From Escherichia coli (GTDB lineage Bacteria; Pseudomonadota; Gammaproteobacteria; Enterobacterales; Enterobacteriaceae), in assembly GCF_041886205.1 (NCBI RefSeq), contig NZ_CP169029.1: a DNA stretch of 64,000 nucleotides; one strand, 5' to 3'. The notes under the pieces are model-generated. The model was not told the origin of the DNA and made no database searches. It saw nothing but the letters and a program-made list of their open reading frames with translations. Numbering within the stretch: position 1 is the stretch's first letter; every line of letters begins with the position of its first letter. The position numbers and the translations under genes were made by a program. Shown piece after piece: positions 28,541-60,906 of the stretch.

Positions 28541-28794
28541 CGACTAAAAGCCTCTTTGCGTCACATTTTTACAACAATTATTGCAGAGAAGATTAATGCT
28601 ATTGGAATGAAGAGAGTAACGAATGGCTAAACCGAATGACGAAAAATTCTGGAAAACAGCACGCAATTTCGTGAAGTGATTATTTCGTCCCTAAGGAAAC
28701 CTCATAGGATGCCTGCGGGTGCCTGAGACTTTCTGTTTTCAGGCTAACCGGGAATCAGAAAGACGAAGGCCCAGACCGATATTTCTATCAACCG

Positions 28795-29012
<218 letters not shown>

Positions 29013-29427: not shown

Positions 29428-29491
29428 CTTCCGATGTAGACCCGTATTCTTCGCCTGTACCACGGGTCGGTTTTAGTACAGGCGTTTTCTT
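29428..29491 (+). ncRNA. rydC: Hfq-dependent sRNA RydC, ~64 nt
   Basis: CTTCCGATGTAGACCCGTATTCTTCGCCTGTACCACGGGTCGGTTTTAGTACAGGCGTTTTCTT matches recalled RydC sequence; TATAAT -10 at 29417..29422; terminator hairpin plus U-run. Confidence 0.8.
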
Positions 29492-38730: not shown

Positions 38731-41701
<2,971 letters not shown>

Positions 41702-41871: not shown

Positions 41872-44178
41872 TCAATACAACTCATCAAGTTTTCTCATCG
41901 CTTGTTCCCGTATTGCGCGCGTCTTACCGTTAAGCGCCAGCTGGCGGACTAAATCCAGTTCAGGGTTAACAAGCTCTAACGCCAGCAAAGGATCACGTTT
42001 CAGCCTCGCCTTTAATACATCAACTGGAAAACGGGGATTATTCATCGCCACAATCCACCACTCGGGATCAATTTCTGCCGCCAGTACTGCAGGCGGTGTG
42101 TGGCGGTTGTTAAGTGCGCCGAACTTGAAAAATGTGAGATTGCTTTTCGCCAGTGTACTCCACCATATACGATCCGGTTGTTTTGCCAGTACATCCAGTT
42201 GTGCTAACGCATCGGGGTCGAGTGCATAATAAACACGTAATGCTTCATCAACCTGCGCACGGGAGCTGTTTTCCTGCCTCAGAAAAAACTTCGCCCAAAT
42301 ATCATTGCGTGGCGTATTTTGCTGTAATTCCTTGAGGACAACAGCGGGTAAATTATCCCAACTAACTAATGCACTCTCTAAAAAGTCCCAGTCTTCCAAA
42401 CGTATCAGGGCGGTGGCATTTAATAGCATCTGGTCATCAACTTCACCGTGGCTGATAAGCTCAGACAAAATCATATCAGCGCTGGTTTCATATGCAGCTG
42501 AATCTGCTTTCGGATTATTTTTCCGATGTGATAAAGCACGTTGCCAAATTTTTTGTTTCATCGCCGTACTCAGATACTGATTTTTCGCCAGATTACTCCA
42601 CCCCTCAGGATCGTTGAAACGTGTCAATAACCGTTGTAAAGCAGCGTCAGAGTGAATTACCTGCATATCCCGACAGCAAAAGTAGGCAGGGGATTTTTTC
42701 TCCATCCTTTTAACAAAATTAAACTGTAAGTTATCTGGCAACGCTAAAAATAACGCACCTATTAGATCATCGTCATTCTCGAATTTTTGGTATAAATATA
42801 CTGCTATTTTGTCACTCTCTTGTGGCGTCATCCGCAACAATTGACCATGGTGTTTCATCTCTGCCAGCTTTAACGCTAAGCTTGTGACAACATCGTTTGA
42901 TGAATCGTTCGCCAACTGCATTGCCTGATTGTAGGTGAGTTGTCCTCCAGCACCGACCTGACGAATAGAGGAATCATCACTGCGGATATAGCCATCAATA
43001 ATGGATTCGGGCAATAACCACGCATCTTTATAAAGCTCCTGAATGATCATATCCCAATCTCTTTTCGCCAGAGTCATGACGATATCCAGAGGGAGATTTT
43101 CACGTAGCGCAAGATTCAACGGACCGACACCATCAGGTAGATGACTCATTCGCGTCATTATTTCGACAGAGAGCGGTTCACGGTCGAGCAACCCCAGAAC
43201 AACAGGCTGGTAACCCAATTGCTGATCGGTCAACTCCAGAATCTCATTGTCCGGCATATATCTCGCCATACTTTCAATCGTTTGTTCATCATTGCTATTA
43301 ATAAGTTGTTTGCGTAGGTTAGCTGAAATTCCTTTAAGCCTTGGGAGAGTTCGCATTATGGCAAGATCAAATGTCGCAATATCTCGTCCTTCAAATGCAG
43401 CAACGTTGCCTTCATCCAGCATTTGCAATTCCTGCACTAACTCAGGAGAAGGCTTAGGGCGAAACAGCGCTTCTTTTTTCATCTGATTACAGACATTCCC
43501 TGCCATGCGAATATTGCTTCGCTTAAAAATTTCTTTCAGAGCATCTTCATCATTTATTCGACCCTAATAATATGCATCAGGATTTATTATCATCAGCGCT
43601 TTTTTGACATTTTCAGTGTCATTTTTGTCACTCGCACGGACCATGAATTCACTATTTGTCGAAGACGCAACAACAGGTGCAATTATGTCATTGATAAATA
43701 TCCCACGCGCATTAATACTCCCCTTAATCGTAGACGGATTATCGTAATATGAGTCGATAAATACCAGTCCACTTGCATTTATCGAACCGGTAATTAACAG
43801 TGGCGAATCTGTAACTATATTTGTTGCCGTCACGTTACCGAGAATAACCCATGGATTAGAAAGAGAGAAAGTGGAAATATTACCTTTGACTGTCAAATTG
43901 CCAAGAACAATCAATTTTTGATTACTCTCTATATTACCTTCTACCACTAAATCGCCACGATGCACTTTCCAGTCCGATGCAGATAAACCGAAGGGGACAA
44001 GATTCACGCTACTGTTGATAGCTTGTTCAACTTGTTGTTTATCTTCAGCGGTAGCTGCAGATAAAAATGGTTCAATATCAACTGCATTTGCAACACATCG
44101 AAGTTCCGCCTGTACTGGAAGACTCAGCATAAACAGGGGAAGTAAACCTATCCAGCTGCAAATCCTGGGCTTAAACAT
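41872..44178 (-). pseudogene. ydbD: ydbD (DUF2773) split by in-frame amber codon into 204/206-aa and 544-aa ORFs
   Basis: ORFs 43564..44184 and 41872..43506 are in the same frame, separated by TAG at 43564..43566 and 19 open codons; total matches a 768-codon frame from ATG 44178. Confidence 0.65.
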
Positions 44179-44241
44179 ATGCACTCCATGCCATTAAAAA
44201 AGAAACAAAAGGGAAATGCATCTTTCCCTTTTGTATATTCG

Positions 44242-45102
44242 TTATTCTCGCGAAATACCATCCAACGTAGACAACACTTCCTCAGAAAGATGCAATTTTT
44301 CAGCAGCCATATTCTCCCGTAAATGCGCAACAGAAGATGTCCCTGGGATCAGCAAAATATTCGGTGAACGTTGTAACAGCCACGCCAGCGCCACCTGCAT
44401 GGGTGTTGCACCCAGGCTCGCAGCAACATCCGACAGCGTAGAGGATTGCAGCGGTGTAAAGCCCCCGAGCGGGAAGAACGGCACGTAGGCAATGCCATCG
44501 CGGGCCAAAGCATCAATCATTGCATCATCCGCACGATGAGCAATGTTGTATTCGTTCTGCACGCAGACGATTTCGGCAATCTTGCGTGCCTCTGCAACCT
44601 GCGTCGGTGTGACGTTGCTCAGGCCAATATGTTTTACCAGACCTTGTTGTTGCATCTCAGCCAGCACGGTCAGGCTGGCCTCAATCGATCCTTCCGCTGG
44701 GCCATGACCATCCCCCATCATAACGCGCAGGTTAACCACATCCAGTACGTCCAGGCCGAGATTACGTAGATTATCGTGCACCGCTTTTTGCAACTCTGCC
44801 GGAGAAAAGGCGGGCAACCAGGAAGCGTCCTCTCCACGCCGCGCACCAATTTTAGTGACAATTGTCAGGTCGTCAGAGTAAGGATAAAGCGCTTCGCGGA
44901 TAATCTGATTGGTGACGTGCGGACCATAAAAGTCGCTGGTATCAATGTGATTGACGCCCAATGCCAGCGCCTCGCGCAGCACAGTTATAGCGACGTGGCG
45001 ATCTCTTGGGGGACCAAAAACCCCAGGACCTGCCAGTTGCATCGCGCCATAACCAAGACGGTTAACGGATTTTGTACCGAGAGTAAATGTATTGCTGCTC
45101 AT
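44242..45102 (-). CDS. ydbC: Aldo-keto reductase YdbC, 286 aa
   Basis: ORF 44242..45102; AKR family sequence. Confidence 0.9.
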   Translation of the reverse strand: MSSNTFTLGTKSVNRLGYGAMQLAGPGVFGPPRDRHVAITVLREALALGVNHIDTSDFYGPHVTNQIIREALYPYSDDLTIVTKIGARRGEDASWLPAFSPAELQKAVHDNLRNLGLDVLDVVNLRVMMGDGHGPAEGSIEASLTVLAEMQQQGLVKHIGLSNVTPTQVAEARKIAEIVCVQNEYNIAHRADDAMIDALARDGIAYVPFFPLGGFTPLQSSTLSDVAASLGATPMQVALAWLLQRSPNILLIPGTSSVAHLRENMAAEKLHLSEEVLSTLDGISRE

Positions 45103-45256
45103 CGCACCCTGCCCTGTAATAAAACGGATTAAGAAAAATCAGTATAGAAACGAAAAGAGATAAATAATGCGAAGGTGTAAACAAGATTACTGGATGAGTT
45201 GCTCTATTGTCCTGAAAGACACCAAAACAAAACGCGTCAAGTACCGCATCCGGCAA

Positions 45257-45289
45257 TAAAAAAACCGCAACCTGTATCAGCGTTGCGGT
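45257..45289 (-). terminator. Rho-independent terminator for ydbA
   Basis: Minus-strand hairpin CCGCAAC...GTTGCGG followed by UUUUUUU, 20 bp after ydbA stop. Confidence 0.6.
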
Positions 45290-45310
45290 TTAGGGATCAC
45301 ATGCTAAAAA

Positions 45311-48300
45311 TTAGAACGTTTTCTTGAAGTTCAGCATCACGCCTTTGTCGCTGATGCCGTCCTCTTTCCAGTTGTACGCATCCAGATTCAGCGAACTTTC
45401 TTTGCTGCTGTACTTCACGCCGACGCTTGCCAGGCTGTTAATGCCGCCGCCCTTCTGACCGTCATCGACGTTAAAGTGCTGACTGCCTGCGCCTGCCAGG
45501 CTTGCCGTACGCTGGCTCTTCGCGTAGCTCAGGTTCGGCCCGCCTTCCAGCGTGGCGTTCGCACTCCAGCCGTCTTTTCCTGCATAATCCAGCTTCAGCC
45601 CGACGATGCTGTCCACCGCCGTTTCGCTGCCGCTGTTCATATTCAGGTTAAAGTCTCCGGCGTTACGCTCCTTATAGCCACCTTCCAGTGTGTGACGCAG
45701 TTTTACACCCGCATATGGCGTAACCTTCAGTCCTTCGCTCGGTTCGAAAGTCTTCGCTCCTTCGCTACGGAACTCCAGGTACTGCTGCTTCACGTCGGTA
45801 TCAGCCGTTTTGTTCGTGTTGCTAAATGCAATCGAGCGGCTGCTGTCAAGGTTGTGAACGTCGTAACGCAAGGCGTTATTCCAGTTCATGCCATTGTCGA
45901 AGGACATCTGATGTTTCAGGCCAAAGAACTGGCTATAACCGCCTGTAACGCCATTATCACCCGCTTTCTGCGCACCATCACCATCGAGACGAGCGATACC
46001 GTACTCCAGACTCATCGTCTGGCTTTCGCTCAGGTCGATGGTTTTACGCAATGCCAGCATGTCGTATTCGGTATTATTACCTAACTCGGCACGCGGATCG
46101 CCTTTCGCGACAACGTTGAACGCCAGACCGTTACCTACCTTCGGTGCGGCATCCGCCAACATACTAAAGCGGTTGCTTAACACGCGCGCTTCGCGGAATA
46201 CCGTGGTCGCCTGGCTACCGCTGACCTGTTTCAGAGCGCTGTTCAGTTCAGCAGTCGTGCCGACGTTCAGGCTGGTAAACAGTTCGTTGTTGGTGTAACC
46301 CGCATCCAGTGCTTTCGCGATGTCATTCACCGAAGCATCTGTTGCCACATCGGTATAAGCGTTTTTGCTCATGGTGACGTCAACGTTACCGCTGGCATCG
46401 GTGCTGCCTTTAGCAGTCCATACCACGGAGGTTGAGGTGATAGCATCCGCGTCGGTCAGGTTGCTGCCCTCCACCACGTTATCAAAATTAACGGTGGTGT
46501 CTGCCGTACAAGCGGTAAACCCGGTGTTGATCCCCACGCCGTTCATGCTGGCATTGTTGACCCTGAGCTTACCGGCGCTGCCATCGGCACTCGTTCCCAC
46601 CACGTAACCGTTGAGATTATTCATGCCGCCATCAACTGCATCACTTCCCGGCGTTAGGCTAACCGTAGTGGGATTCGGTACATCCGGCAACGTATAGTCG
46701 CCATAATGCAATTCCGTGTTATTACCGTTGTTACCGTTCACGCCTTCAACATTGACGCTGTCGCCCTGCTTAATCAGCCCCGATCCTGTCACGCCATCCG
46801 CAATGACCACCGTGCCGTTGTTGACCACGTGACCTTCTGTACCCAGCACGCTGAATGCAAACGAGTCATTGGCGAAGATATTGATGGTGCCGTTGTTCTC
46901 GATCACCGCATCCGCCGTGGCGTTAGCATCGAGTTGCATACCGATCATGCCCGTATCGGTAGTGCCCTCTGTACCGAGGTTGATGGTGCCAGTGTTAACC
47001 AGTTGCGCATTCTTATCACCTTCCATAGCCACAGCACCGGTGCCGCTGATATTCATCGTGCCGTCATTCTGCGCAATGAAGTTACTGTGAGTGAATTTCA
47101 CGGCGCTGGTACTGTCGTGGTCGAAGTTGATGACCCCGTTATCCAGATTCCAGAAGAATGCGCTCTGATCGCCAGCGTTATTGGCGCTCACCACCAGCGA
47201 CTTCGCAGAGACATCAATCGTTCCATCGTTGATAAAGCGACCATTCCCACCCCACATATTGACAGCACCGTTATGTGAGGAATTACTGATGTCCATGTGA
47301 CCAGTGTTATAAAGCGTACCGGACTGATTAATATGCACAGCATTCTTGTTGTTATCGAGGATAAACTCACCGCTGTTATTGAAGACGGCGTTGTTATTAA
47401 CTTCCAGCATACCTGCGTTATTGCCGCCACTGCTACTACCGAGGCGCCAGGTTCCTTCGTTATTGACCCAGGCATCACCGGTTAATGCAGAACCATTGTC
47501 CACTTTGCCATCTTGTAGGTTATTAAAGATGCCACTGGTCTGAATAATACGTTTACTCACCGTACCACTGTTATTAAAGACGCCGGATTTTTGCACAACA
47601 TTGCTAATAGTACCGGAGTTGTTCACCAGATTAGTGCTAGCCCCAGCATACATTGTCACATTACCGTTGATGGTACCCTCATTATTGAGTACCCCCCCCT
47701 GAGCATCAATATTACCCATCGAGCCAGCATTATCTATTACAGCATCTGGTGCCAATTTCACCATGGAGTTAATAATCCCCGTAGAGGCATTTTCGAGCGT
47801 ACCACTCCGAACGTTAATATCACTACCAGAAGCCGTCCCCGCATTAATAACGCTTCCGGGCACTGCGTCAGTTATCACCACAGAATTAATGAAGTTTGTC
47901 GACTCACCATCTGCCACCAGGATATCACCACCAGAGTATTGCAATGAGACATAATTATCGCCCTGGTTATATTCATCCGCACTCTGACAAATACCAAAAG
48001 TACAGAACCTGCCATAGTTAATAATTATTCCTGTTCCATCGCTGTAAAATGCCTGGCCGATATTTGTATCGATATTAATTACACCCGTTATATCATTAAT
48101 TGCCATACCACTATTAATTGCACCCACCGCGAACAGCTGGTTCTCTTGCTGCTTCGTCACGCCCTCATCTGCGGTGAGGTTGATTGTCCCCTGGTTGACA
48201 ACGGTCCCGCCGCTCATCGCCAGCATACCGAAACCTTCGTTATTAACATTGATGGTTCCGGTATTTAACCCACTGGCATCGCCATTTCCGATATCGGTTG

Positions 48301-51196
48301 ACCCCACAAGAACGCCACCGGACATAAGATAAGGATGGGACGTTTGCCAGTAGGATTTACTGATGATATTACCATCGCTGTCCAGTTCGGGAATAAAGCC
48401 ATCGACATTGATTTCCCCGGCGTTGGTCGCCGTGCCTTTAGATGCGGCGACGGCATAAATCCCCGCCCCCTGCAGATTCATGGTGGCGTCGGATTCATTG
48501 ATCACGCTGCCATCATTACTGGCCCACAGACCATAGTTGGCACCGAAATACCATTTCAGAGGGGCTTCAGATATCCCTCCGGCAAAAGCAGGCGTCGTTA
48601 CAGAAAGCAGATTTATCACGCCACCCGACGCATTCGTAACCTGAGAATTCTGGCCACGAGCACGCATTGTCCCCACCGTGGTGAATTGCTCACCGCTAGG
48701 TTTGACATTAATAGTTCCACTATTAGTGATATGTGCACCATTGTTAGCCATCATTAAATCCTGGCTATCCAGCGTGTTAATCACACCTTTGTTTTCAACG
48801 CCGGACTGACTGCCAGTAGCAGAAATAAGCGCACGATTATCGAAGAAATAGTCGGTATCTCTGACTTTACTGGATATATCCGTTACAGAGTTTTTATCAA
48901 ATATAACATTTCCACCGTCCGCCACCGTGACCAACGTAAAGGCACCCACTACCTGACGGATATCCATAGTTGAATGGCCACTAATGTTAACTGTATTATC
49001 ACCAATAATTGATATACCATCTATGATATGCGCGGAGCTATCCCCAGCAACATTAATACCACCATCGATATTAATGGTATTATTCGTACCGGAAACGACC
49101 ATGCCATTCGCCAAGTGATCTTGATATATTAATACACCTTCCACCGTAATATTAACATGACCACTAATATCCACCGTGTTATTTTCACCACTGATCACGC
49201 CGCCGCTTATCGGAGTGATTTGTGCATCAGCGTTATCGCCGAGACTGGAATTAATATTAATGCTTCCGTCAACGCTAATATGGCTGTCATTACCCGTCAG
49301 GCTGAAACCTGTAGCACCCGGCGCATTGCCTTCGCTATCTGGTTGCTGGAATACGTTAATATCTCCGCTTAATTCAACCTGCTCACGGTCACCCACAATG
49401 GATACCCCAGTTCCGTATCGCGAAACATCAATTTCGCCCACGTTACCAAAAACTTCATCATCACCATCTATCAGAACTCCCACAGAACCGGAATCCGTAA
49501 CAACAATCTTGCCTTTATTACTTATCTGCGAGTTATTACCGGCGATATAAATACCCGTTGCCCCTCCGCTGACGTAGAGGTCACCTTCCTGGCTAATTGT
49601 TGCATTGTGCCCAGCAACTTTTGTCCCTACCGCATTCTCACCGTCAACCGTCATATCCCCGGCGATATTCATCTCATTGCCATCGCCAGTGATGGTTATA
49701 CCGGTGGCATTCTCACCCAAAATATTAAGATCATAGGTCGCCAGGGTAATACTATTGTTGTCGCCGATAATCTCCATGCCGGTTGTATCGTCTTTAACCA
49801 ACATCGAGCCAGCAAGCGAAATACTGCTGCTGTCCCCGGTGATTTTTACACCAGTACCGTTATTTGTCGTGGTGATGTCCCCCACATTGACAAAGGTAGT
49901 ATTATCACCATTGATTAACACGCCATAGGGGTTTCCATCACCGTCCGCCTGACCAACATTGATATCACCAATGTTCATAAAGGTTGTCTGATCGCCATCC
50001 AGCAACACACCGATGGAACTGTCATCCACCACAGTAATATTACCTTTATTACTGATGACAGTACCCTTACCCTCGGCGTCAATACCGTGTGCGCCACCGC
50101 TGACGTATAAGTCACCCTGCTGCCTTACAATGGCATCTTCGCCGATAATTTTTGACCCCGTTGAATTTGCACCATCAACGGTCATGTCGCCTTTGATTTC
50201 AACGCGGGCATCATCCCCTGTAATCACACTCCCCGTGCCTCCATTCGCGATTTCAACATCACCAACGGTGTCCAGCGTGGTACGATCGCCATTAACAATA
50301 ACTGCCGCCCCACCATCAACTTCCGTCTCACCATTATTAGTAATGGTGATATCATCACCGGTAAGAATACCTACCACCGAACCTTCACCAATCGCGGTAG
50401 TTTTGCCATCGTTGTTCAGGGTGATGTCGTTACCGTCAACGTTTATCACAACGCCGCCATTCAGCGCGATGTTGCCGCCATGGTCGGTAATAGTGGCATC
50501 GTTAATATGGAAATGTTCGCCAGTTGTACCGTCTGCGGTGGTGAGTGACTCTATGATTATTTCGATTTTTCCCGCTTCGTCATAGCGCCAGGTGGAGGTT
50601 CCGCCAGGATTGACGCCATTGAACGAAGCCGTGTTAGCCGCCTCGTCGACTAACCAATCCTTCACGATTGTGGTAGTGCCGCCAGGTCCGGTAAGCGTAT
50701 AGCTGCCATCGTCATTTTTGGTGTAGGTAAAGGTGGTATCACGTAATTTTAGGGTCTTCGCGTCCTGATCCCAGGTGACATCGTTTTTATAGACCACAGG
50801 ATCGTGTTTGACTGGCGTGTCATCGCCACCGTCGTCCGGGGTATCATCGCCGCCATCATCCGGCGGGACAGGTGTGTCGCCGCCATCATCCGGCACCGGA
50901 GACGGATCGTCATGATGATTATTATTATCGTGGAGTGCATATACTGCGACGCCTGTGACTGCCGCTGCCAGCCCCACTGCAGCCCAGGGTAATAACTCAT
51001 TATCTTCAACTGATTTACACTCTGCCGGCAGCTTTTCTAGCTGTTCTTTACTTAGTGATTTAATATTAGCCGGGCAGCTAATCTTGCTGGATTTACGAGA
51101 TTCATCCGATGTTTCCGCTATCGACGTATCTGCCGCCCATGTCTGACTGCTTAACGCCATTGCAACACAGACACTGAGCAATTTTTTCCTTTGCAT
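45311..51196 (-). CDS. ydbA: Intact autotransporter YdbA, 1961 aa (signal peptide, repetitive beta-helix passenger, C-terminal beta-barrel)
   Basis: Single ORF 45311..51196; signal peptide MQRKKLLSVCVAMALSSQTWA; GD/GN-rich repeats; C-terminal barrel ending KKTF; SD GAGGA upstream of ATG. Confidence 0.85.
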   Translation of the reverse strand: MQRKKLLSVCVAMALSSQTWAADTSIAETSDESRKSSKISCPANIKSLSKEQLEKLPAECKSVEDNELLPWAAVGLAAAVTGVAVYALHDNNNHHDDPSPVPDDGGDTPVPPDDGGDDTPDDGGDDTPVKHDPVVYKNDVTWDQDAKTLKLRDTTFTYTKNDDGSYTLTGPGGTTTIVKDWLVDEAANTASFNGVNPGGTSTWRYDEAGKIEIIIESLTTADGTTGEHFHINDATITDHGGNIALNGGVVINVDGNDITLNNDGKTTAIGEGSVVGILTGDDITITNNGETEVDGGAAVIVNGDRTTLDTVGDVEIANGGTGSVITGDDARVEIKGDMTVDGANSTGSKIIGEDAIVRQQGDLYVSGGAHGIDAEGKGTVISNKGNITVVDDSSIGVLLDGDQTTFMNIGDINVGQADGDGNPYGVLINGDNTTFVNVGDITTTNNGTGVKITGDSSSISLAGSMLVKDDTTGMEIIGDNNSITLATYDLNILGENATGITITGDGNEMNIAGDMTVDGENAVGTKVAGHNATISQEGDLYVSGGATGIYIAGNNSQISNKGKIVVTDSGSVGVLIDGDDEVFGNVGEIDVSRYGTGVSIVGDREQVELSGDINVFQQPDSEGNAPGATGFSLTGNDSHISVDGSININSSLGDNADAQITPISGGVISGENNTVDISGHVNITVEGVLIYQDHLANGMVVSGTNNTINIDGGINVAGDSSAHIIDGISIIGDNTVNISGHSTMDIRQVVGAFTLVTVADGGNVIFDKNSVTDISSKVRDTDYFFDNRALISATGSQSGVENKGVINTLDSQDLMMANNGAHITNSGTINVKPSGEQFTTVGTMRARGQNSQVTNASGGVINLLSVTTPAFAGGISEAPLKWYFGANYGLWASNDGSVINESDATMNLQGAGIYAVAASKGTATNAGEINVDGFIPELDSDGNIISKSYWQTSHPYLMSGGVLVGSTDIGNGDASGLNTGTINVNNEGFGMLAMSGGTVVNQGTINLTADEGVTKQQENQLFAVGAINSGMAINDITGVINIDTNIGQAFYSDGTGIIINYGRFCTFGICQSADEYNQGDNYVSLQYSGGDILVADGESTNFINSVVITDAVPGSVINAGTASGSDINVRSGTLENASTGIINSMVKLAPDAVIDNAGSMGNIDAQGGVLNNEGTINGNVTMYAGASTNLVNNSGTISNVVQKSGVFNNSGTVSKRIIQTSGIFNNLQDGKVDNGSALTGDAWVNNEGTWRLGSSSGGNNAGMLEVNNNAVFNNSGEFILDNNKNAVHINQSGTLYNTGHMDISNSSHNGAVNMWGGNGRFINDGTIDVSAKSLVVSANNAGDQSAFFWNLDNGVINFDHDSTSAVKFTHSNFIAQNDGTMNISGTGAVAMEGDKNAQLVNTGTINLGTEGTTDTGMIGMQLDANATADAVIENNGTINIFANDSFAFSVLGTEGHVVNNGTVVIADGVTGSGLIKQGDSVNVEGVNGNNGNNTELHYGDYTLPDVPNPTTVSLTPGSDAVDGGMNNLNGYVVGTSADGSAGKLRVNNASMNGVGINTGFTACTADTTVNFDNVVEGSNLTDADAITSTSVVWTAKGSTDASGNVDVTMSKNAYTDVATDASVNDIAKALDAGYTNNELFTSLNVGTTAELNSALKQVSGSQATTVFREARVLSNRFSMLADAAPKVGNGLAFNVVAKGDPRAELGNNTEYDMLALRKTIDLSESQTMSLEYGIARLDGDGAQKAGDNGVTGGYSQFFGLKHQMSFDNGMNWNNALRYDVHNLDSSRSIAFSNTNKTADTDVKQQYLEFRSEGAKTFEPSEGLKVTPYAGVKLRHTLEGGYKERNAGDFNLNMNSGSETAVDSIVGLKLDYAGKDGWSANATLEGGPNLSYAKSQRTASLAGAGSQHFNVDDGQKGGGINSLASVGVKYSSKESSLNLDAYNWKEDGISDKGVMLNFKKTF
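50818..50896. repeat. Imperfect tandem repeat (three ~24-30-bp units) encoding Pro/Asp/Gly-rich linker in ydbA
   Basis: Repeated TCGCCGCCATCATCCGG units encoding PDDGGD(D)TP x3. Confidence 0.6.
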
Positions 51197-51597
51197 ATGA
51201 AATTCCTCATAAATAGATGATTACGCAGCCCAGATAAACTGCACAGGGTTAAATAGTTACAAATATTCGAAATCTGGATATTGTTTTTAACAGAATAAAT
51301 ATATTGATTTAGCGAATGCATTTATTCATTAAGTCAATACATCTTTTCTTTAATTTATATTTTTAACGCATTTATTTCAACTTAAAATATGACGCAATTG
51401 AGATTAAATCCGATAACACTGATGAATTAAATAATGCAATTAATTCATGAAATAAATAAATTATCATGTGAATGAAGCATTCATCATCGGCATCTATATG
51501 AAATTAAATGAAAAATAATTCTCAATAGCATTGCAGTTAATATTGAATATTTCAGGAGGTACAACCAGGCAGATTTTTCTCGACGAATACCGACTTA
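51197..51597. promoter_or_regulatory. Highly AT-rich 400-bp intergenic region upstream of ydbA (probable promoter / nucleoid-protein-bound region)
   Basis: Long AT-rich tracts between ydbL stop and ydbA start. Confidence 0.4.
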
Positions 51598-60541: not shown

Positions 60542-60570
60542 ATGCTCTGGATAAGGATTATCCAATTCTA

Positions 60571-60679
60571 AAAAAAAGCCCGGACGACTGTTCGGGCTTG
60601 TCTTTTTATATGTTGGAAAATCAGTGGCAATGCAATGGCCCAACAGAAAATAAAATCTGTGACAATAAAGGCATATAAC
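60571..60679 (-). ncRNA. micC: Hfq-dependent sRNA MicC (repressor of ompC), ~109 nt
   Basis: Minus strand GTTATATGCCTTTATTGTCACAGATTTTATTTTCTGTTGGGCC...AAGCCCGAACAGTCGTCCGGGCTTTTTTTT matches recalled MicC; divergent from ompN. Confidence 0.8.
60578..60608. terminator. Bidirectional intrinsic terminator shared by ydbK (+) and micC (-)
   Basis: Hairpin GCCCGGACGACTGTTCGGGC flanked by A-run upstream and T-run downstream. Confidence 0.7.
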
Positions 60680-60906
60680 CCGCGCAGAATAACGTATAGA
60701 AAATTAAAAGTATAATTTTTATTTTGTATGTATTATCTTCGATACATTCACCAGACTTATTATCATTTCAGAAGAATTATTTGATTAAGGTTTTACTTAA
60801 GGCGTAACAAATGATATTTATCGGCTAACTGAACTTCTCCTTTAGGATGTTTTCACTCCCCGAAATGGGGATAAAAGGCAAATAAAATAACTAAAGGATT
60901 TATTCA

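Follow-up and report, generated by a model that had tools for sequence, protein, structure and literature searches.

This study concerns a 64,000-nucleotide stretch of Escherichia coli DNA (contig NZ_CP169029.1 of assembly GCF_041886205.1), referred to here as the window, and the ydbA gene that it carries. Positions 45311-51196 of the minus strand form a single open reading frame (ORF) of 1961 codons plus a stop codon, and no internal stop was found on reading it. The probability of 1961 consecutive stop-free codons is, by our own arithmetic, approximately (61/64)^1961, i.e. about 1e-41, and the ORF is therefore not a chance run. It represents a complete coding sequence of the ydbA/bigA family, which ends with TAA at 45311-45313 and contains neither an insertion sequence (IS) element nor a frameshift. 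Its identity as ydbA is borne out by its position at the ydbA locus, with pdxI (ydbC) and ydbD downstream and ydbL, ynbE and ydbH upstream. The immediate downstream neighbour is pdxI (44242-45102), an arrangement shared with K-12 and with all genomes listed. A Shine-Dalgarno sequence, GAGGA (51204-51208), was read 7 nt ahead of the ATG start codon (51194-51196), and an intrinsic terminator was found at 45255-45291. The 10-bp GC-rich stem of the terminator, AAACCGCAAC / GTTGCGGTTT at 45262-45291, begins 20 nt past the TAA stop, encloses a loop of 10 nt and is followed by 7 T on the minus strand. A consensus terminator scan did not list this element, because its loop exceeds the limit of 8 nt of that tool, and it was verified by folding instead (-16.6 kcal/mol). 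An earlier note on this DNA had described a gene identified as ydbA, consisting of a single uninterrupted 5.9-kb ORF of 1961 residues with a Shine-Dalgarno-preceded ATG and a downstream intrinsic terminator. All of these elements were found; the strand, which the note did not give, is the minus strand, and this holds for all features of the gene described below.

The C-terminal part of the protein is predicted to form a complete type Va translocator, in agreement with the barrel that had been proposed in the earlier note, which had also named the absence of a functional translocator domain as the result that would speak against it. A separate scan of the last 340 residues gave a match to the autotransporter β-domain PF03797 (E=1.4e-19). 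This family was not reported in a Pfam scan of the full-length protein, which is therefore a filter artefact and not a sign that the translocator is absent. The last 461 residues were modelled with AlphaFold; with an alignment of 24 diverse C-termini from an all-protein representative search, the model reached a predicted local distance difference test score (pLDDT) of 89.7 and a predicted template modelling score of 0.81; with 15 close E. coli homologues instead, the pLDDT was 30.7 and the model was useless. The model comprises a β-sandwich, a helical junction and 12 long strands that run to the terminal phenylalanine. The β-sandwich (strands at model positions 25-111, pLDDT >90) corresponds to the BigA_beta domain (PF25783; residues 1530-1613, positions 46358-46609, E=3.8e-23), and the junction (residues 1614-1708, 46073-46357) contains helices at model positions 121-132, 148-159 and 165-182. 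The last of these, a long helix at residues 1665-1682, lies just ahead of the first barrel strands in the predicted structure and presumably occupies the barrel pore. The 12-stranded outer-membrane β-barrel itself is assigned to residues 1709-1961 (45314-46072), which end in NFKKTF.

Structural comparison of the model returned the translocators of EstA (3KVN), AaaA (9OQA), NalP (1UYN/1UYO), AIDA-I (4MEE), Hbp and EspP. The superpositions on EstA, AaaA, NalP and AIDA-I extended over 259-337 residues, that is, over the whole barrel and more, and those on EstA, NalP and AIDA-I are superpositions on helix-in-barrel structures. Sequence comparison gave less: a profile of the C-terminal region against PDB sequences recovered the EstA barrel (E=0.0013), and phmmer searches of PDB sequences with the whole protein and with the C-terminus found nothing meaningful. 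The solved translocators differ from YdbA in several respects, as their sequence identity to it is only 5-17%, and their passengers are unrelated, being an esterase, an aminopeptidase or a protease where YdbA has a repeat stalk. In YdbA, moreover, the BigA_beta sandwich stands right before the junction helices that lead into the barrel. The protein ends in VMLNFKKTF, and the terminal phenylalanine, the β-signal for the β-barrel assembly machinery (BAM), is present in at least 90% of the 25 diverse family members that were aligned.

At the other end of the protein, residues 1-21 (MQRKKLLSVCVAMALSSQTWA, followed by AD; 51134-51196) constitute by inspection a Sec-type signal peptide, with a basic n-region (R3, K4 and K5), a hydrophobic core of 10 residues and a cleavage-type site T-W-A|A. 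Residues M1, Q2, K4, L7, S8, A12, A14, L15, S16, W20 and A21 show little or no variation among 20 homologues, and these sequence features and their conservation support the signal peptide that had been claimed earlier. A lipoprotein resembling NalP was considered and rejected: C10 lies only 4 hydrophobic residues past the n-region, the residue at -1 is a valine, and there is no plausible lipobox. YdbA combines the Sec signal peptide with the 12-stranded PF03797 barrel, the pre-barrel helix and the C-terminal aromatic residue, which are the features expected of a type Va autotransporter.

With regard to family membership, the protein contains BigA_N (PF25784), the BigA/YdbA N-terminal β-barrel domain, at residues 134-213 (50558-50797; E=1.3e-25, 89.8 bits against a cut-off of 24.5). 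Both BigA_N and BigA_beta score well above their gathering thresholds, and homologues carry the same precomputed set of Pfam domains. The best NCBIfam match is auto_BigA (NF033178), with 1329 bits over residues 424-1961 only. As the cut-off of that model is 3400 bits, YdbA is a member of the BigA/YdbA family and not an equivalog of Salmonella BigA. It resembles BigA of Salmonella enterica, annotated as 'surface-exposed virulence protein', in this best match, in the presence of BigA_N and BigA_beta and in a tandem repeat after the signal peptide, but it remains far under the auto_BigA cut-off, and BigA itself owes its adhesin role mostly to annotation. In the literature, Salmonella BigA is treated as a putative or candidate adhesin that has been pseudogenised in host-adapted lineages, and its passenger has been described as AIDA-I-like on a NalP-type barrel (Celik et al., PMC3419190).

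Between the two ends lies the passenger, residues 214-1529 (46610-50557), which is rich in Gly (13%), Asn (10%), Thr, Ser and Asp and is presumed to form a parallel β-helix. Residues 215-700 show a periodicity of 24-25 residues, and the observed autocorrelation was reached in none of 500 shuffles. Such a period fits one coil of a three-faced parallel β-helix, and a gene with 99.9% identity carries the label 'pectate lyase-fold domain-containing' from the Prokaryotic Genome Annotation Pipeline. From this periodicity and annotation we infer a β-helix fold. Of the GD/GN-repeat β-helix passenger put forward in the earlier note, the repeat-rich character and the period could be observed directly, whereas the helix itself is presumed from these two lines of evidence. 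Large Gly/Asn/Asp-rich repetitive passengers on type Va barrels are also found in AIDA-I, Ag43 and TibA. The repeats of YdbA are nevertheless not of the AIDA type, which has a period of 19 residues: Pfam scanning gave no AIDA or pertactin-type match at E up to 10, and the period differs. These three proteins also lack the N-terminal modules of YdbA, namely the Cys pair, the hydrophobic helix, the repeat linker and the BigA_N barrel.

We compared the window with K-12 using strain MC1061, a K-12 strain, in which the gene adjoining pdxI is annotated as two pseudogene pieces with IS30 and IS2 transposase genes between them. This annotation agrees with the statement, made earlier for MG1655, that K-12 ydbA is a pseudogene split by IS2 and IS30. 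A K-12 reference protein of 2007 residues was rebuilt from the two pieces, and the insertion point of the IS elements corresponds approximately to residue 781 of the window protein. Overall identity between the two proteins was 56%, being 34-48% over residues 1-1245 and 90-100% over residues 1246-1961; there is no near-identity to ydbA_1 and ydbA_2 over the whole length. At the DNA level, blastn detected similarity to K-12 only at positions 45000-47464 of the window, i.e. the 3' 2465 bp, with 92.6% identity. The upstream regions of the two genes share no homology. The two genes are alike in their position by pdxI, in their domain order and in the C-terminal 716 residues, but the K-12 gene carries IS2 and IS30, has paaY upstream, is unrelated in its promoter region and differs strongly over residues 1-1245. 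In the window, ydbL and not paaY is found upstream, because the fea-tynA-paa cluster is absent. The suggested alignment to ydbA_1 and ydbA_2 therefore upheld the idea of the same locus free of IS elements, but not that of a K-12 allele minus its insertions. Judged by its sequence, ydbA of the window is a divergent mosaic allele, and is neither the ancestor of the K-12 gene nor its uninterrupted form.

An intact ydbA is ordinary and already annotated, and is neither rare nor new, since the identical protein is already public and full-length ydbA is common in E. coli. The exact 1961-residue sequence is present in NCBI on 20 contigs (e.g. EJW6288204.1 and EKI53818.1), where it is named as an autotransporter or as a BigA/YdbA-domain protein. 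Full-length homologues of 1850-2130 residues fall into more than 100 clusters from E. coli, E. albertii, E. ruysiae and Pseudocitrobacter; hundreds of them carry an autotransporter annotation, and the alignment of the window protein with annotated full-length homologues extends over the entire length. The conserved 3' part, which encodes the translocator, was found in 3096 of 5426 complete E. coli genomes (57%). The window allele itself is present at 99.9% in only 6 of these genomes, the flanks of which are 99.9-100% identical to those of the window. According to a comparative genomics study, about 42% of phylogroup A strains have a full-length ydbA (PMC4951805). Several RefSeq genomes, as well as one 2027-residue GenBank protein, label a YdbA homologue as 'EntS/YbdA MFS transporter' (MFS, major facilitator superfamily), apparently a confusion of the names YdbA and YbdA that has spread between annotations.

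Two variable regions were recognised in the protein. The first is a linker at residues 90-133 (50798-50929), which consists of a His/Asp cluster and a Pro/Asp/Gly repeat and is encoded by a 30-bp variable-number repeat. The in-frame unit, PDDGGDTPVP, is present in approximately 1.6 copies in the window, in 7.6 copies in strain LHM10-1 (L001, 11848-12075) and in 11.6 copies in strain wlxctx60 (L002, 11848-12195), although these two genomes are 99.9% identical otherwise. Tandem Repeats Finder did not detect the linker array in the window, because fewer than 2 copies are left there, and the repeat was established via the sister genomes. An end-to-end alignment with the 2021-residue protein of LHM10-1 revealed 4 substitutions and one 60-residue repeat contraction. 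The 90% cluster of the window protein, with 203 members, includes lengths of 1961, 2011, 2021, 2031 and 2061 residues, in 10-residue steps. The Salmonella locus STTR3, used in multiple-locus variable-number tandem repeat analysis, lies in BigA between the signal peptide and the remainder of the chain (PMC5183578), and this sort of repeat variation is therefore already known.

Given that 7.6-11.6 copies are present in each of the six complete genomes that share this allele, and that assemblies are well known to collapse at tandem repeats, the length of 1961 residues could be an artefact in which an array of about 8-12 copies was collapsed to about 1.6, the real gene encoding 2011-2061 residues. 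We consider this very improbable, as the identical protein is found on 20 independent public contigs, one of them of 4.86 Mb, and as reads and inserts are long enough to span the array of 350 bp or less. The contraction is moreover in frame, which leaves the interpretation unchanged either way.

The second variable region comprises residues 214-1245 of the passenger, which are hypervariable. In the E. coli clusters P0002, P0004, P0029 and P0039, the N-terminus is 100% identical, blocks 214-700 and 701-1245 are 33-92% identical and the translocator is 97-100% identical. Across E. coli clusters, residues 214-1245 differ by up to 67% despite a 100%-identical N-terminus, and the translocator is 89-100% identical. 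A mosaic passenger on a conserved translocator is the pattern that would be expected of a recombining surface antigen, and suggests that the passenger has undergone recombination-driven antigenic diversification.

In the mechanism that we propose, the signal peptide would take the pre-protein through SecYEG, and the BAM complex would insert the C-terminal 12-stranded barrel into the outer membrane. The passenger of approximately 1600 residues would then thread out with its C-terminal end first and fold on the surface as a long repetitive β-helical stalk, attached via the helix in the barrel pore. These steps follow established type Va secretion. The exposed passenger would most likely act as an adhesin or aggregation factor, while residues 214-1245 would be shuffled between strains by recombination and the 30-bp N-terminal repeat would change its copy number. 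That the window carries an intact chromosomal ydbA allele, encoding a classical (type Va) monomeric autotransporter of the BigA/YdbA family that operates in this manner, is in our view very probable.

Nothing that was found contradicts the integrity of the gene or its type Va architecture. The functional part of the interpretation is weak, however, and a number of observations weigh against it. The passenger gave noise only in Pfam scans at E up to 10 of four segments (the N-terminus and three passenger blocks), and a whole-family profile found no match to it among PDB sequences. The hydrophobic helix at residues 67-89, which is considered below, is not expected from the standard type Va model. 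In the literature, no experiments on YdbA of E. coli were found. The sister gene of strain wlxctx60, which is 99.9% identical, contains an internal stop, and decay is apparent beside ydbA in this lineage, with a stop in ydbD and the deletion or fusion of ynbA to ynbC. Finally, the intergenic region between ydbL and ydbA (51197-51597, minus strand), which places the ydbA start 400 bp from ydbL and presumably bears the promoter, contains a single sigma-70-like match (51380-51352) that was identified by consensus only, and the number of such matches equals the expectation from shuffled sequences.

Several of these points would also be explained if the gene were intact but cryptic, that is, transcriptionally silent (for example through H-NS acting on the AT-rich upstream region), perhaps on its way to becoming a pseudogene, and devoid of a phenotype under most conditions. 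The 400 bp upstream have a GC content of 27%, which is typical of xenogeneically silenced loci, and the sole promoter-like match is at chance level. The eroding neighbourhood, the stop in the wlxctx60 copy and the loss of the K-12 copy to IS elements fit this picture as well, and cluster members of 802, 1433 and 167 residues point to frequent truncation. According to a Salmonella paper, it is unknown under which conditions most adhesins are induced (PMC13228587). On the other hand, the 5.9-kb ORF remains open and differs from sister genomes by only 4 substitutions, the Shine-Dalgarno sequence and the terminator have been retained, as have the N- and C-termini that are conserved throughout the family, and the identical sequence occurs on 20 contigs. 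Fragments of K-12 ydbA are also measurably transcribed, more so in an rpoZ mutant (PMC5811629). A silent gene therefore seems to us possible but rather unlikely, and it would be compatible with a type Va autotransporter and not exclusive of it. In light of the AT-rich upstream region, the chance-level promoter match, the eroding neighbourhood and the stop in the sister ydbA, ydbA of the window is most likely an intact, secretion-competent gene that is weakly or conditionally expressed. Its expression is probably low under laboratory conditions, because of the low GC content upstream.

The N-terminal region between the signal peptide and BigA_N shows further features of interest. Residues 22-66 (50999-51133) form a conserved segment with a Cys pair, C41 and C60, in the motif C-P..LS.E...KLP..C, which was found again in representatives from other genera. 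This segment is followed by a Gly/Ala-rich, hydrophobic, helix-like stretch with acidic flanks, LLPWAAVGLAAAVTGVAVYAL (residues 67-89, 50930-50998), identified by hydropathy; no other 19-residue Kyte-Doolittle window in the protein scores as high as the one in this stretch (1.77). Family members of other genera share the same layout, in which the signal peptide leads on to a Cys pair, a hydrophobic helix and a repeat linker, although the repeat units of the linker differ. The predicted helix and the variable linker are therefore a property of the BigA/YdbA family and not peculiar to the window. A stable inner-membrane anchor at residues 67-89 was considered and rejected, as both flanks are acidic, there is no positive-inside signal, and in either orientation the passenger and the barrel would remain in the cytoplasm after the first signal peptide engages.

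The helix could possibly act as a capping element, as a secretion pacing element or as a membrane-active tip resembling that of VacA. Taken together, the cleavable signal peptide, the disulfide-capable Cys pair, the Gly/Ala-zipper helix and the Pro-rich linker of variable length might constitute a family 'tip module' outside the standard type Va picture. The helix of such a module might enter a target membrane or form oligomers in the manner of VacA, or might tether the N-terminus transiently during secretion, with the linker tuning its reach. We regard this combined idea as improbable. If it were true, the allele of the window, which has the shortest linker seen (about 1.6 repeats as opposed to 7.6-11.6), would offer a natural length variant with which to address it.

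A more specific version holds that YdbA is not simply an adhesin, and that the Gly/Ala-rich helix, displayed at the distal tip on the Pro-rich linker, would enter a target membrane or bring about oligomerisation. A possible parallel is the VacA autotransporter, which has a GxxxG segment at its N-terminus. Such activity would be in line with the helix being the most hydrophobic stretch of the protein and with the layout that is kept across genera while the repeat units differ, and the Cys pair suggests export into an oxidising compartment. The helix could, however, equally pack on BigA_N or just slow release from the inner membrane. According to a hand calculation with the Hessa biological scale, residues 67-89 sum to approximately +2.5 kcal/mol, which is marginal; this value explains passage through Sec but is silent on insertion into a target membrane. 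A membrane-active YdbA thus appears decidedly improbable, and the type Va stalk that most likely functions in adhesion or aggregation is the preferred interpretation.

These results correct a K-12-centred view of ydbA, which is a pseudogene in K-12, whereas many natural E. coli carry it as an intact surface-protein gene with a high degree of polymorphism. For the biology of the strain, they would add one more candidate adhesin or antigen, the passenger of which appears to be reshuffled by recombination. The N-terminal repeat could be used as a typing marker, as is STTR3 in Salmonella bigA. Beyond such bookkeeping the significance is small, and the question of wider interest is the N-terminal hydrophobic helix of the family together with its variable linker.

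With regard to the surroundings of the gene, the feaRB-tynA-paa (phenylacetate) cluster, which lies between ydbL and ydbA in K-12, is absent at the junction in the window. At least 80% of the ydbL-ydbA junction region is matched in only 114 of 5426 complete E. coli genomes, and the intergenic region is 98.4% identical among genomes with the same junction. On the other side, ydbD (41872-44184, minus strand), which encodes a DUF2773 bactofilin and is intact in K-12, contains an in-frame stop at 43564-43566 (...PDAYY*GRIND...), and in sister genomes it carries the identical defect and a pseudogene annotation. At approximately 40037-41701 (minus strand), as can be read from a 100%-identical sister genome, a truncated ynbC without its N-terminal part and a truncated ynbA without its C-terminal part are found, and ynbB is gone, which represents a deletion in the phospholipid-related ynbABCD operon relative to K-12. 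An Rfam scan of the ydbA flanks returned no RNA family match. Elsewhere in the window, matches at gathering score were found for MicC (60562-60682, minus strand), the hok/sok-type antitoxin RNA sok (28717-28868, plus strand) and RydC (29428-29491, plus strand), which are ordinary chromosomal small RNAs of E. coli and bear no relation to ydbA.

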